64,000 nt of DNA, taken from the NCBI GenBank assembly GCA_946407705.1, contig CAMJPC010000006.1:43753-107752 (forward strand), given 5' to 3'. The stretch comes from an uncultured Clostridia bacterium (GTDB taxonomy: Bacteria > Bacillota > Clostridia > Saccharofermentanales > Saccharofermentanaceae). Below are positions 2,590 through 46,903 of the stretch, piece by piece. The notes under the pieces are model-generated. The model made no database searches. It was not told the DNA's origin and saw only the letters and a program-made list of their open reading frames with translations. The stretch's first letter is position 1, and the number at the start of each line of letters is the position of its first letter. The position numbers and the translations under genes were made by a program.

Positions 2590-3381
2590 TTAATTGATCG
2601 CAGGATTATAGCAGATTACGCTTTTGTCATGCGGGCTGTACTTCTTCCCTTCAACAAGCTTGAACTCATGCTGCTTGGCAACGCCACCGAACCATTCATA
2701 GGGCTTGTCATCAGATGTCTTTCCTTCACTAATCTCAATTGCACCCTGTCGCAGGCATCTGATGAGCGAAATATCATCGAAATCCCTTGCGTGACCATGA
2801 AGAATGAAGTCAGCCTTTTCTTCTAGGAAAATGATCCTGTCCAAAGCTTTAACGTATTCAGCAAGAGGCGGACAACCATCAAGCATCATCCAAAGATGGT
2901 GGTTGATCGAGTCTCCTGTAAACAGGATCCTGTCCTCCTTAAGGAGCAGAACTATTCCACCCTGCGTATGTCCGGGGAGCTCATAAACCTCAAGAGTCTT
3001 ACCGCCCAGATCAATGACATCTCCTTCCTTGATCAGCTTGAACGGAGGCATTGAAAAGCCATACGTCTCACAAGCCTTAACAAAATCCGGGTGCTTAACA
3101 AATGACTCAGCCATCTCAAGATCCTTAGGATGGATATAAGCCTCATCAAAATACACGTTACCGAAAATGTGATCAGGATGACCATGTGTATTGATTACAA
3201 CGATCGGTTTATCAGTGAACTTTCTGATGAAACTCTTGATATCAGTGAAACCGTTCATTGTATCGATCACGGCAACCTTTTCCTCTCCTTCCACCACAAA
3301 ACCAGTGGCGAGATGTCCCTCATCCAAAAGATAGAGATAAGGCTTAAGCTGCTTCGGGAAAAGCTCCAGTTTCTCTTCCAT
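2590..3381 (-). CDS. MBL-fold metallo-hydrolase
   Basis: THGHPDH motif, PGHTQG and FTGD. Start moved to the ATG at 3381, behind a GGGAGGA RBS. Confidence 0.88.
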   Translation of the reverse strand: MEEKLELFPKQLKPYLYLLDEGHLATGFVVEGEEKVAVIDTMNGFTDIKSFIRKFTDKPIVVINTHGHPDHIFGNVYFDEAYIHPKDLEMAESFVKHPDFVKACETYGFSMPPFKLIKEGDVIDLGGKTLEVYELPGHTQGGIVLLLKEDRILFTGDSINHHLWMMLDGCPPLAEYVKALDRIIFLEEKADFILHGHARDFDDISLIRCLRQGAIEISEGKTSDDKPYEWFGGVAKQHEFKLVEGKKYSPHDKSVICYNPAIN

Positions 3382-16311: not shown

Positions 16312-16662
16312 TCAGCAGTATTCAGCAAGCGATATATCAAATCTTTCAAGATAGTATTTCCTGATACACTCACAGAACTCTCTGATATACCTTCTGACAG
16401 TTCTGTTGTTGTAAAACTCGAGATTAGATATCCTGTCAATCGTGATATTACCCGTAAGATAACGCAGAGCTATCCTGGACTTCTCACTGCCGGTCTTCAT
16501 AGAAGCGCAGTTGAGCGCGTCATTCCAATGGTTAACGATAAGCATGTAATCAGATCTTGATTCAGCATAACCGTTGGCAGCCATAGATGAAGTCAGCATA
16601 TCAATGGCATCACGTTTGAACGCTATATCTTTTACGGTACAGTTAAAAATCCTCATTTTCAC
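16312..16662 (-). CDS. ArpU/RinA-like (sigma region-4-like) HTH protein
   Basis: C-terminal RIALRYLTGNITIDRISNLEFYNNRTVRRYIREF resembles the ArpU/RinA HTH. Start is GTG 16662 or ATG 16656. Confidence 0.55.
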   Translation of the reverse strand: MKMRIFNCTVKDIAFKRDAIDMLTSSMAANGYAESRSDYMLIVNHWNDALNCASMKTGSEKSRIALRYLTGNITIDRISNLEFYNNRTVRRYIREFCECIRKYYLERFDISLAEYC

Positions 16663-17008
16663 TTTCCTTTCTCATCCTGATCAGCAAAGACAGTTTCCGA
16701 AGACTGAAATAGAGGGTTTTAAGCACGCTCTTCGCAGTTAAGACTGCAAAAAGTGAGTATAAGACCCAAGGCATCATCTGCCCCCAATCGACTATATTCA
16801 GTTATTCGGAAGTCATACTGCGATCAGCAGCACGCGCCTCTCAATACCGGAGCTATCCTTGCCGAAGTAAACTGTAACTCTTCAAACTACCTAAAAAATG
16901 ATTTCCCAGAAACGTCAAATAAACTAAAAAACCTACTTAAATACAACCAGACGTTTCCCTTAACCGACAGTTACGTAATGATAAGCTCCTTTCTGAAGTT
17001 TTGAGTTC

Positions 17009-17036: not shown

Positions 17037-17226
17037 TAGGAATTCGAAAATTTGTTCCTACAATCTGTAGTGATTATGCTAGACTATCTTTCAATCTACA
17101 TCAAGATATAGTGTTTACAGCACTTTCAAGAAATGAGGGTTTCAAAAGGCCTGTTGTATAGGCATTCTTCAAAGAAGAACGCTGAAAAGCCCCCGCAAAT
17201 ATGAGTTTTTTGTTTGGGTTTAGGAA

Positions 17227-17901
17227 CTAGATCCTATCGATCCGGTATCCTCTCCCTCTGACTGTCTGGATCAGTCCGCCCTTTCCTCCAAGCTGCAGCC
17301 TGAGCTTTTGGATCTGGATATCGACGACTCTGATATTGCCCTTATACTTTTCACCCCATACTTTTTTCAGGATGGTTTCTCTGCTGACAGCGTTGGGTTT
17401 GTTTTCGAGAAGCAACCGGAGAATATCCGTCGCTTTATCTGAAAGATAAACCACGTGTCCGTCAAGAGTTGTAAGTCCCGTCAGCTGATTCATTCTCAGA
17501 CCGCAACATTCGAGTGTGGGCATCTGATAATTGTCTTCACCCCTCAGATGTTCTAGTATCTTCTCCCAGATCTCTTCGGGTGATATCGGCTTGATCATGA
17601 ATTCGTATGTGCCAAGCGCATATGCAAATCTCACATCATCAAACTCGTTCATCGAGGTTATGTAGATGATCGGACAGGTGCTGTTCTCCATGATCCTTCT
17701 GCATAGATCTATGTCTGAATCACCTGAAAGATTCTGATCCACAAATATAAGATCATAGACACCTTTTTTGATCTTATCGAGTCCGTCGTTGCAATTGCCA
17801 GCCGTATCAAAAGTAATCAAATCGTTTCCAATTTCAGCAAAATAAGCTTTTACGTTCTCCTTAAAACCGAACGTATCTTCAATCAAAAGTATTCTTTTCA
17901 A
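17227..17901 (-). CDS. OmpR/PhoB-family response regulator
   Basis: Receiver ILLIED...FVD...ITS...KP; winged helix VSRETIL...RVVDIQIQKLR...TVRGRGY. TTG start. Confidence 0.88.
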   Translation of the reverse strand: MKRILLIEDTFGFKENVKAYFAEIGNDLITFDTAGNCNDGLDKIKKGVYDLIFVDQNLSGDSDIDLCRRIMENSTCPIIYITSMNEFDDVRFAYALGTYEFMIKPISPEEIWEKILEHLRGEDNYQMPTLECCGLRMNQLTGLTTLDGHVVYLSDKATDILRLLLENKPNAVSRETILKKVWGEKYKGNIRVVDIQIQKLRLQLGGKGGLIQTVRGRGYRIDRI

Positions 17902-45068: not shown

Positions 45069-45545
45069 TCAAGTCTGTGTCTGATTGTTTGCCGTTGTTG
45101 CGGCAGTTGTCGGCGGTATGCTCGGAGCCGTCTCCTCCGCATCTTTCTTATCGGAGAACGGATCGTTCTTTACGAGCTCCGTCCAAGAGCTGAATCCGAA
45201 CATCTGCCTTATCTCATCGTAATTGAATATTGACAGCGTGCGGTCAAGCACGATAAATAACAACAAAAAGAAGATCAGCGCAAGGAGTCCTCTTCTCAGG
45301 ATCATCATCCTGCGTTCCGCGTTATATCTCTCATCCACATATTTCCTCGTGGTGTAGCCGACAACGACATAAACGCGGCTGATATCCTTGCGGGGCGGCC
45401 TGTCGCGGAACTCGCGCCATGACCTTCTGATACGCCCGAATATCCTCGACGGAATACTCTTGATGAGTCTGACCGTAGCGCGCCATGAAGCACCAAAGAA
45501 ATCAGATATAACGTCAGAAGTCTTTCTGTCGCTTGAACCAGCCAA
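45069..45545 (-). CDS. Hypothetical single-TM protein
   Basis: AGAAAGGCGG RBS; Arg-rich N-terminal part and one hydrophobic helix. Confidence 0.65.
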   Translation of the reverse strand: MAGSSDRKTSDVISDFFGASWRATVRLIKSIPSRIFGRIRRSWREFRDRPPRKDISRVYVVVGYTTRKYVDERYNAERRMMILRRGLLALIFFLLLFIVLDRTLSIFNYDEIRQMFGFSSWTELVKNDPFSDKKDAEETAPSIPPTTAATTANNQTQT

Positions 45546-45612
45546 GAAATACGCCGCCTTTCTGCTTTGATTCGCCTATTATATCATTATTGCAAAGATC
45601 AAAGAAGAATCG

Positions 45613-46167
45613 TTATTTATCCCGGATCAGCTTGATATCGTTACGCTCAGCGAACAGTACGGCGAGATCACTCAAAGCCTTGTCTCTCTTCCTGAAGAAC
45701 GTCGACCTCGAAAAATGCATGTCTTTGCAGATCGTTTGCAACGGTACTTTTATATAGTATTTCAAATATAATACCTTAGAGTACGGATTTCTCAATGACA
45801 CAAGGAGCGTAAGAAGCGCAACGGCGTCTCTCTTTTTCCTGATGAGCTCCTTATACTCTGCCCGCATCGCTGCTATGTATTTGTCAAAGCCGGCACAAAA
45901 ATCGATCATCTCGGCAGTCATGTCACACTCACGCTTGGGCATACCGGAAAAATCCGTCACTTTTGCAGGTGCGCACTCTGCAGCATAAAGACTCATCAAG
46001 AGCTTACGCTTCTCTTCTTTTGTCTTCTTGATATCAGCAAGGAAATCCGTAGCTTTATCAGATGAAGTGTTCACGTCGCTGTATAACGATGTAAGTTTCG
46101 CCACTAAAAACTTCTTAAGCGCCTTCACGGTCATGCGCTTTTCAACCTTATATACTAAGTCCTTCAT
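45613..46167 (-). CDS. ArpU/RinA (DUF1492-like) HTH protein
   Basis: Coiled-coil middle region and C-terminal VLYLKYYIKVPLQTICKDMHFSRSTFFRKRDKAL HTH; AGGGGGT RBS. Confidence 0.7.
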   Translation of the reverse strand: MKDLVYKVEKRMTVKALKKFLVAKLTSLYSDVNTSSDKATDFLADIKKTKEEKRKLLMSLYAAECAPAKVTDFSGMPKRECDMTAEMIDFCAGFDKYIAAMRAEYKELIRKKRDAVALLTLLVSLRNPYSKVLYLKYYIKVPLQTICKDMHFSRSTFFRKRDKALSDLAVLFAERNDIKLIRDK

Positions 46168-46190
46168 TTTCTTACCCCCTTTCGCTTATA

Positions 46191-46250
46191 CAAACAATTG
46201 TTTGACATGCCATACATTAATGTTAAAATGGCATTAAAGAAAATATGTTT
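46191..46250 (+). promoter_or_regulatory. lexA promoter with two SOS-box-like sites
   Basis: TTGACA (46202-07)-16-TAAAAT (46224-29) with a TG extension. CAAACAATTGTTTG palindrome at 46191-46204; GAAAATATGTTT at 46239-46250. Confidence 0.7.
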
Positions 46251-46261
46251 GGAGGCGCAAA

Positions 46262-46903
46262 ATGGCCCGATTCAGCGACAATAAATCAATCGAACGAGTT
46301 TATGACTACATCTGCGACTACATCAGAGTCAACCAGATTTCACCTTCCGTCCGCGACATCTGTGCCGGAGTTGGTCTTAAGTCCACTTCCTCCGTCCATA
46401 CTTATCTTAAGGAACTGGACAACGAAGGAAGGATCGAATACAGACCGGGACTTCGAAGAGCCATTATCATCAAGCAGTATGACGATGAGCCCGCCCCCAA
46501 GGTTACTTCATTAAGTGATTGCAGACCTGTTTACTGCGTCGGTAAGATTACCGCCGGTGTTCCGATACTTGCCACCGAAGATTACAGCGACCGTTTCTTC
46601 ATCAGCAAATCAGTGATCGGCGATGCCGAGTGCTTCATGCTGAAGGTCAAGGGCAACAGTATGATCAATGCTCATATCCTGGATGGTGATTATATCTTGG
46701 TCCGCAAGCAGAACTTCTGCGATGAGGGAGATATAATCGCTGCCCTGATCGATGACGAAGCGACTGTTAAGAGATTCGGCAAAAAGGACGGTAACCCGTA
46801 TCTGTTCCCCGAGAATGACAACTACTCACCAATTCCTTTCAACAAGGAGGGATGCAAGATTCTCGGCAAAGTAGTTGGTCTGCACCGATATAATATTAAT
46901 TAG
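46262..46903 (+). CDS. lexA: SOS repressor LexA
   Basis: PSVRDIC..VGLKSTSSV HTH, Ala-Gly cleavage site (ITAGVP), Ser (KGNSM) and Lys (TVKR) catalytic dyad. Confidence 0.95.
   Translation: MARFSDNKSIERVYDYICDYIRVNQISPSVRDICAGVGLKSTSSVHTYLKELDNEGRIEYRPGLRRAIIIKQYDDEPAPKVTSLSDCRPVYCVGKITAGVPILATEDYSDRFFISKSVIGDAECFMLKVKGNSMINAHILDGDYILVRKQNFCDEGDIIAALIDDEATVKRFGKKDGNPYLFPENDNYSPIPFNKEGCKILGKVVGLHRYNIN

Follow-up and report, generated by a model that had tools for sequence, protein, structure and literature searches.

In the rumen genus Saccharofermentans (as delimited by GTDB) the lexA gene is faced, across a short divergent intergenic region, by a gene whose product is related to the late-gene activators of phages. 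With a probability of roughly 60% we read this gene as that of a domesticated phage late-activator homologue, which sits behind the lexA operator and works as an SOS-induced second-tier regulator of host promoters. A second-tier SOS regulator is the best reading because the gene is chromosomal and phage-free, its product belongs to the Ltr superfamily, it lies under conserved LexA boxes and its pairing with lexA is conserved. SOS networks are usually described as a single layer leading from LexA to the effector genes; here, in a genus whose members are abundant Clostridia associated with rumen fibre, a phage-derived sigma-4-type activator appears to be wired directly under LexA in a phage-free setting. 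If induction were confirmed, the locus would provide a clean example from nature of a host stress cascade that has domesticated the late regulator of a phage, as well as a handle on the damage-switched genes of these organisms of the uncultured majority.

Layout of the shared intergenic region

In the window, i.e. the whole stretch of 64,000 nucleotides that was analysed, the regulator gene and lexA are divergent and separated by a gap of 94 bp (46168-46261). The features of the locus are as follows.

45069-45545, minus strand: gene for a single-pass membrane protein (158 aa, TTG start), the ancestral lexA neighbour
45578-45586, minus strand: extended -10 TGATATAAT, part of the membrane-protein gene's own promoter; it falls within the 67 nt that follow the regulator stop codon
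45613-46167, minus strand: DUF1492 (LtrB-type) regulator gene, 184 aa; Pfam PF07374 with 28.7 bits (cut-off 21.5)
46175-46179, minus strand: regulator Shine-Dalgarno sequence GGGGG, 7 nt before the ATG, read from the sequence
46191-46204, no strand: LexA box 1, CAAACAATTGTTTG, a perfect palindrome CAAACAA/TTGTTTG with the core AAAC-AATT-GTTT (inverted-repeat and pattern scans)
46202-46229, plus strand: lexA promoter TTGACA-16-TAAAAT with TG extension (promoter scan, 11/12 matches)
46207-46234, no strand: inverted repeat ATGCCAT-N14-ATGGCAT around ACATTAATGT (arms 46207-46213 and 46228-46234), clade- or species-specific
46239-46250, no strand: LexA box 2, GAAAATATGTTT, immediately before the lexA Shine-Dalgarno sequence GGAGG (pattern scan)
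46262-46903, plus strand: lexA, 213 aa; TIGR00498 with 180 bits (cut-off 111), LexA_DNA_bind and Peptidase_S24 domains

This layout corroborates the preliminary description, which had reported the 94-bp divergent gap, a palindrome over the lexA -35, a second site before the ribosome-binding site and an inverted repeat; all four were confirmed in position. Box 1 overlaps the lexA -35 hexamer TTGACA (46202-46207); the distance to the start codon of the regulator is 24 nt for box 1 and 72 nt for box 2. Across the genus, the region common to lexA and the regulator spans 85-150 bp and holds two LexA dimer sites ~47 bp apart, and a Shine-Dalgarno sequence of the GGAGG type is found at the same place in the regulator orthologues. 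The promoter scan and the genus alignment yielded no sigma-A candidate for the regulator that was conserved and consistently placed relative to the boxes. Two candidates, TATAAG after box 1 and TTAACA-18-AACAAT running through box 1, were rejected as weak and unconserved across the genus.

The inverted repeat ATGCCAT/ATGGCAT had been suggested to be the regulator's own operator. When its conservation was sought across the genus loci, it turned out to be confined to a few of the closest species, and it overlaps the -10/-35 spacer and hence the core promoter of lexA, which leaves the suggestion unsupported. At the place of window positions 46207-46234, a few relatives (L103, L105, L106) carry a repeat of the form GCCATT-N8-AATGGC around the lexA -10, in one case as GTCATT-N8-AATGAC with both arms changed. 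Repeats of this type may represent a hairpin or a protein site particular to the clade, or may have arisen by chance; they amount to too little for a conserved site.

Family and fold of the regulator

The regulator begins with helices, which are followed by a conserved loop (YAPAKVTDFSGMPKRECDMT), a long helix and, at the C-terminus, an HTH that resembles sigma region 4. The Pfam model DUF1492 is matched not only by the window protein but also by 20/20 of its orthologues, and a comparison with PHROG_36 ('transcriptional regulator') gave a match at 8e-11. The NCBIfam models for RinA (TIGR01636) and ArpU (TIGR01637), in contrast, did not match the window regulator at E <= 1; among the orthologues, sub-threshold ArpU matches were obtained for 6/20 (best 9e-5) and weak NCBIfam matches to ECF sigma factors, restricted to the region-4 part, for 17/20. 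The label 'ArpU/RinA-like', under which the gene had been described before, is thus appropriate at the level of the superfamily, whereas the exact family is DUF1492/LtrB, whose model the protein passes while failing those of RinA and ArpU. DUF1492 corresponds to the LtrB family; experiments on this family and on RinA, ArpU, LtrA and LtrC have established that they activate terS, morphogenesis and lysis operons (Quiles-Puchalt et al. 2013, PMC3753634).

An AF2 model calculated from 20 orthologues reached a pLDDT of 80 overall and of 90-95 over residues 110-170. The loop YAPAKVTDFSGMPKRECDMT is disordered in this model though conserved in sequence, and the C-terminus forms a three-helix bundle, which superposes on sigma region 4 structures of the PDB (ECF sigmas, SigF and FliA) with TMt values of 0.7-0.8 and an rmsd of 1.6-2.9. 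Full-length Foldseek alignments with ECF sigmas resulted in low TM values (0.27-0.33), and the Pfam domain Sigma70_r2 was found neither in the window regulator nor in its 20 orthologues. Among the predicted viral structures of BFVD, the best full-length matches were phage proteins annotated as DUF1492, 'Sigma-70 region 4' and 'transcriptional activator'. Furthermore, hhalign of the regulator family profile against a RinA-like phage-type protein of 144 aa gave a probability of 95%, the alignment extending from the loop motif to the C-terminus. A sequence search of the PDB returned chance-level and weak sigma-4 matches only, and tblastn against 50,697 phage records revealed no close phage relatives.

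The clade to which the regulator belongs is isolated: a search of 1.84 billion representative proteins retrieved 62 clusters at E < 1e-10, and beyond these almost all matches cover the sigma-4 region only, a few weak ones (E of 1e-4 or worse) covering more of the profile. Within the clade, the recognition helix and the motifs are conserved among the orthologues. From its sequence the regulator is best read as a domesticated homologue of phage late-gene activators (Ltr superfamily, with Pfam DUF1492 as the LtrB type). By homology, it would bind DNA via the sigma-4-like domain and activate transcription.

An unusual member of the representative library, P0064 (424 aa), consists of a DUF1492-type C-terminal half fused to a long N-terminal region of secreted- or repeat-rich-looking character; either a true but odd fusion or mistaken gene calling could explain it.

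LexA boxes and probable control of the regulator

In the window the pattern RAAMAWWTGTTY occurs at 3 sites, which give 4 matches since box 1, a palindrome, is matched on either strand; 0.54 +/- 0.80 matches are expected, and 0/100 shuffles reached a count of 4. The whole genome contains 11 matches, 9 of which are intergenic though intergenic DNA accounts for ~7% of the genome, a share that rests, like the genome-wide motif statistics, on crude ORF calls. Intergenic sites of the LexA type precede recA (GAACATTTGTTC), uvrB (GAACAATTGTTC), ruvC (AAACATTTGTTC), a 249-aa gene (GAACATATGTTT) and a dinB-like gene for a Y-family polymerase (GAAAATATGTTC, near-identical to box 2), and the two lexA boxes complete the set. 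The ordinary clostridial LexA operator has the form GAAC-N4-GTT(C/T) (PMC4234289). The boxes of recA and uvrB are canonical GAAC-N4-GTTC sites, and box 1 reads GAACAATTGTTT in most congeners, which is the normal clostridial GAAC-N4-GTTT type. A drifted LexA motif, as had been assumed from the window, is therefore not borne out; the two lexA boxes of this genome are weak variants of the normal motif, AAAC being a local variant.

Both boxes are in register at all genus loci examined (sets of 20 and 63). Across the genus box 1 is mostly GAACAATTGTTY, and in most congeners its sequence is of the form GAACAATTGTT(C/T); it also occurs in the sister genera, as CGAACAATCGTTTGACA. Box 2 is nearly invariant within the genus and absent from the sister genera. 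The regulator gene thereby carries the sequence marks of a LexA regulon member, namely the organism's own motif in its promoter or leader and an operator that is conserved at the orthologues. The earlier proposal that the regulator stands under LexA-type boxes in common with lexA is consequently upheld by the genus-wide conserved position of both and by the recurrence of the same motif at recA, uvrB, ruvC and the dinB-like gene.

Two opposing views of these boxes have to be weighed. The presence of box 1 in genera which lack the regulator marks it primarily as the operator of lexA itself, and since it is older than the insertion of the regulator its coupling to the latter could be incidental. 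In the extreme case the boxes would serve lexA autoregulation only, the regulator would be expressed independently of damage and its adjacency to lexA would be the outcome of a neutral insertion; that a clear, conserved sigma-A promoter of the regulator cannot be aligned to the boxes is in keeping with such a view. In the loci L151 and L153, however, box 1 ends 4 nt before the regulator Shine-Dalgarno sequence, so that the transcript has to start at or upstream of the box in these species. As all transcription of the regulator has to start inside the 85-150 bp with the two LexA sites, repression by LexA becomes likely. Box 2, moreover, is found in the regulator-bearing genus only, which likewise speaks against autoregulation as the sole purpose. 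We regard autoregulation alone as an unlikely explanation and expect with good confidence that LexA represses the regulator gene.

A draft SOS regulon of this genome (contig positions C1:72603, C4:149180, C8:71496, C9:70981, C2:127693, C3:148768, C25:5491 and C25:8172) comprises the boxes of recA, uvrB, the dinB-like gene, ruvC and the 249-aa gene and, by a looser pattern, boxes of dnaN and gyrB. The third LexA-type box of the window, GAAAATTTGTTC, is located at 17046-17057 inside a non-coding stretch of 220 bp. Its neighbours are a response-regulator gene (17227-17901, minus strand) and two short ORFs without a Pfam family (16312-16662, minus strand, and 16753-17004, plus strand).

Conservation and origin of the gene pair

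The regulator was detected in 89/100 species genomes of the genus; one of these gave two matches and each of the others a single copy. Completeness of the 11 genomes that lack it is 64-91%. No full-length regulator occurs in any other genus searched within the family and order. The arrangement of lexA, the divergent DUF1492 gene and the membrane-protein gene following the latter is collinear in 63/63 loci (named loci, LexA identity of at least 69%). At 16/16 sister-genus loci (LexA identity 45-50%) the regulator is missing and lexA faces the membrane-protein gene. Conservation of the divergent pair, which the preliminary description had envisaged for the family, accordingly holds within the genus (63/63 loci, 89/100 genomes) but not across the family (0/16 sister-genus loci). 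Similarly, the regulator does occupy the lexA-divergent slot assigned to it, yet this slot was not originally its own, since order-wide lexA faces the membrane-protein gene. Because the membrane-protein gene is older and directly lexA-divergent wherever the regulator is absent, the comparison of loci indicates that the regulator was inserted into the space separating the membrane-protein gene from the lexA operator, in the ancestor of Saccharofermentans.

Pairwise distances of the regulator, lexA and the membrane-protein gene co-vary with r = 0.85-0.91, which argues for vertical inheritance. The regulator is the fastest-evolving of the three, with a dN of 0.35 compared to 0.03 for lexA and 0.14 for the membrane-protein gene. 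Its dN is well below the dS of the neighbours (~1.2-1.4), and with its own dS saturated the dN/dS ratio of 0.2-0.3 is only a rough value. Being single-copy in the genus, syntenic in 63/63 loci and co-diverged with both neighbours, the gene does not represent a scar recently left by a prophage, in agreement with what had been supposed at the outset.

Phage ancestry, a high rate of amino-acid substitution and the restriction to one genus would also fit a prophage remnant that has lost its function and is decaying, and in several regulator matches, mostly from draft assemblies, the matched range is interrupted by one or two in-frame stops. Such a remnant would not be expected to keep its reading frame intact in most of ~90 species together with its motifs and recognition helix, nor to remain in single copy and in synteny, to co-diverge with its neighbours and to show a dN so far below their dS. 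This explanation is extremely improbable to us.

Phage context and possible targets

As had been noted for the window, no phage genes flank the regulator: its neighbours are lexA, the membrane-protein gene, gdhA, miaA and mutL/mutS, and it does not lie upstream of terS or a late operon. Searches of this genome with PF03354, PF03237, PF04860 and PF05065, which are common Pfam families for terminases, portals and capsids, gave no match. The genus genomes gave 0/41 for TerL_ATPase, 0/41 for Phage_portal, 2/31 for Terminase_6N and 1/31 for the HK97 capsid.

These counts bear on the reading that the regulator is the damage-triggered master switch of a domesticated phage-derived machine located elsewhere in the genome, be it a GTA, a tailocin or a lysis cassette, comparable to PBSX/Xpf, with DNA damage setting off lysis or the making of particles. 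All characterised relatives of the regulator activate phage late, packaging or lysis operons (PMC3753634), and GTA-like particles are known from Gram-positive gut anaerobes (PMC12946183). A regulator which is present in ~90% of the species, however, cannot have as its target something that nearly all of them lack; with no phage gene at its flanks, and with the four head and packaging families lacking here and nearly lacking genus-wide, control of a GTA or prophage is decidedly unlikely. Divergent phage head or packaging families, or a bare lysis cassette, are possible targets of the regulator.

The comparison with characterised Ltr activators (PMC3753634) gives a corresponding picture. In common with the LtrB/Ltr superfamily, the regulator passes the DUF1492 model, ends in a sigma-region-4-like HTH and contains the P-x-K...G-M-P-K loop; the helix-loop-long helix-HTH layout is likewise shared, as is, putatively, an SOS-sensitive repressor upstream in the control. 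Unlike the Ltr activators, it is found outside any phage, with no terS or late operon downstream, as a core gene of a bacterial genus. It is also 35-60 residues longer, has a family-specific N-terminus and forms an isolated clade, and its presumed repressor is the host LexA itself instead of a phage CI.

The downstream membrane-protein gene

The gene which follows the regulator was found in 153/197 genomes of the order, almost always beside lexA. Its product belongs to no Pfam family according to a Pfam search, and no anti-sigma Pfam domain was present; the orthologues have 150-170 aa and share the invariant motifs VYVVVGYTT, NAERRMMI and NDPF. The protein is laid out as a cytoplasmic N-terminus of ~85 residues, one span and a short outer tail. 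Its AF2 model shows a long helix over residues 67-106 which includes the membrane span, the pLDDT of 68 being too low for a fold search.

With respect to its expression, the element TGnTATAAT is kept before the membrane-protein gene in the genus and in those sister-genus loci (11/16) in which the stretch examined took in the site. The terminator scan found no terminator in the 67-nt gap after the regulator gene. Induction of the regulator would therefore read into the membrane-protein gene too, and the regulator transcript probably does read through. In the -35 region of the membrane-protein promoter, two 7-nt repeats (TCTTTGA/TCTTTGC) and a CTTyTTrC element form a weak candidate site for the regulator, whose conservation is limited to the two largest clades. 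CTTyTTrC combined with the extended -10 was considered as a target motif of the regulator and rejected, as several clades of the genus lack it, no further copy turned up in the genome and it defines no regulon.

Gene order and the layout of the membrane protein resemble those of ECF sigma/anti-sigma pairs, and the two proteins might form such a pair, with the ~85-residue cytoplasmic N-terminus holding the regulator inactive. Against this speaks that the membrane protein is far older than its supposed partner, occurs order-wide without it, has kept its own promoter, has the slower evolution of the two and is devoid of an anti-sigma Pfam domain. We judge an anti-sigma-like role to be very improbable.

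Proposed mechanism

For the preferred second-tier SOS regulator, the arrangement of the locus suggests the following course of events. In undamaged cells LexA would most likely shut both divergent promoters, with box 1 lying over the lexA -35 and adjoining or covering the regulator promoter or 5' leader, and box 2 lying at the lexA ribosome-binding site. After damage, the RecA-stimulated cleavage of LexA would allow the regulator to be made, which would then, as the transcription factor of a second tier, regulate promoters of the host.

A precedent for a LexA-repressed regulator of the sigma type is SigN (ZpdN) of the Bacillus subtilis plasmid pBS32, a sigma-type factor which is directly repressed by LexA, induced by damage and forms a second regulatory tier (PMC6751061). 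A sigma-type regulator placed as a second tier under LexA is what both systems would have in common, in the present case as judged from the DNA sequence. They differ in that the regulator described here is chromosomal, located beside lexA and fixed in a genus, and no sigma-2 domain was detected in it.

The lexA-divergent slot

In Gram-positives the gene divergent from lexA can encode an SOS division inhibitor; YneA, SosA, DivS and ChiZ are such lexA-divergent inhibitors and are small membrane proteins (PMC6851548). The regulator holds the same slot and likewise has its operator region in common with lexA. Unlike these inhibitors, it is a cytoplasmic HTH protein, predicted by AF2 to be soluble and all-helical and thus different from the small single-pass membrane proteins of the YneA/SosA class, a class into which a peptide of the sister genera fits better. 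At 9/16 sister-genus loci an ORF for a single-pass membrane peptide of 35-75 aa with a good Shine-Dalgarno sequence, e.g. MKYYDRMLFIGKWILIISLVLIVLLSATVLKHH..., was found in the lexA-operator slot, between the LexA box and the membrane-protein gene (L158:~3188-3370, L159, L160, L163, L167, L168, L170, L174 and L178); at the other 7/16 loci the slot is empty. By position and size, these peptides are analogues of SosA/SidA-type SOS division inhibitors.

A more far-reaching version of the mechanism would make the locus a host SOS timer, in which LexA cleavage leads to the regulator and the regulator to a delayed second wave of host-gene expression, the whole having replaced the membrane-peptide checkpoint of the sister genera. 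We consider this version doubtful; were it true, the regulator may drive division arrest or an envelope response, possibly via the adjacent membrane protein, and not a phage function.

More generally, the lexA-divergent slot can be viewed as an evolutionary 'socket' which, before one conserved membrane-protein gene, holds nothing, a small membrane peptide, the regulator or further inserts, and it seems to accept insertions repeatedly. In one clade (L151:2892-3427 of isolate KHP2, L146, L153, L155 and L157) a further insert of ~180 aa is located between the regulator and the membrane-protein gene, whose sole family match is a weak, sub-threshold one to DUF3846.
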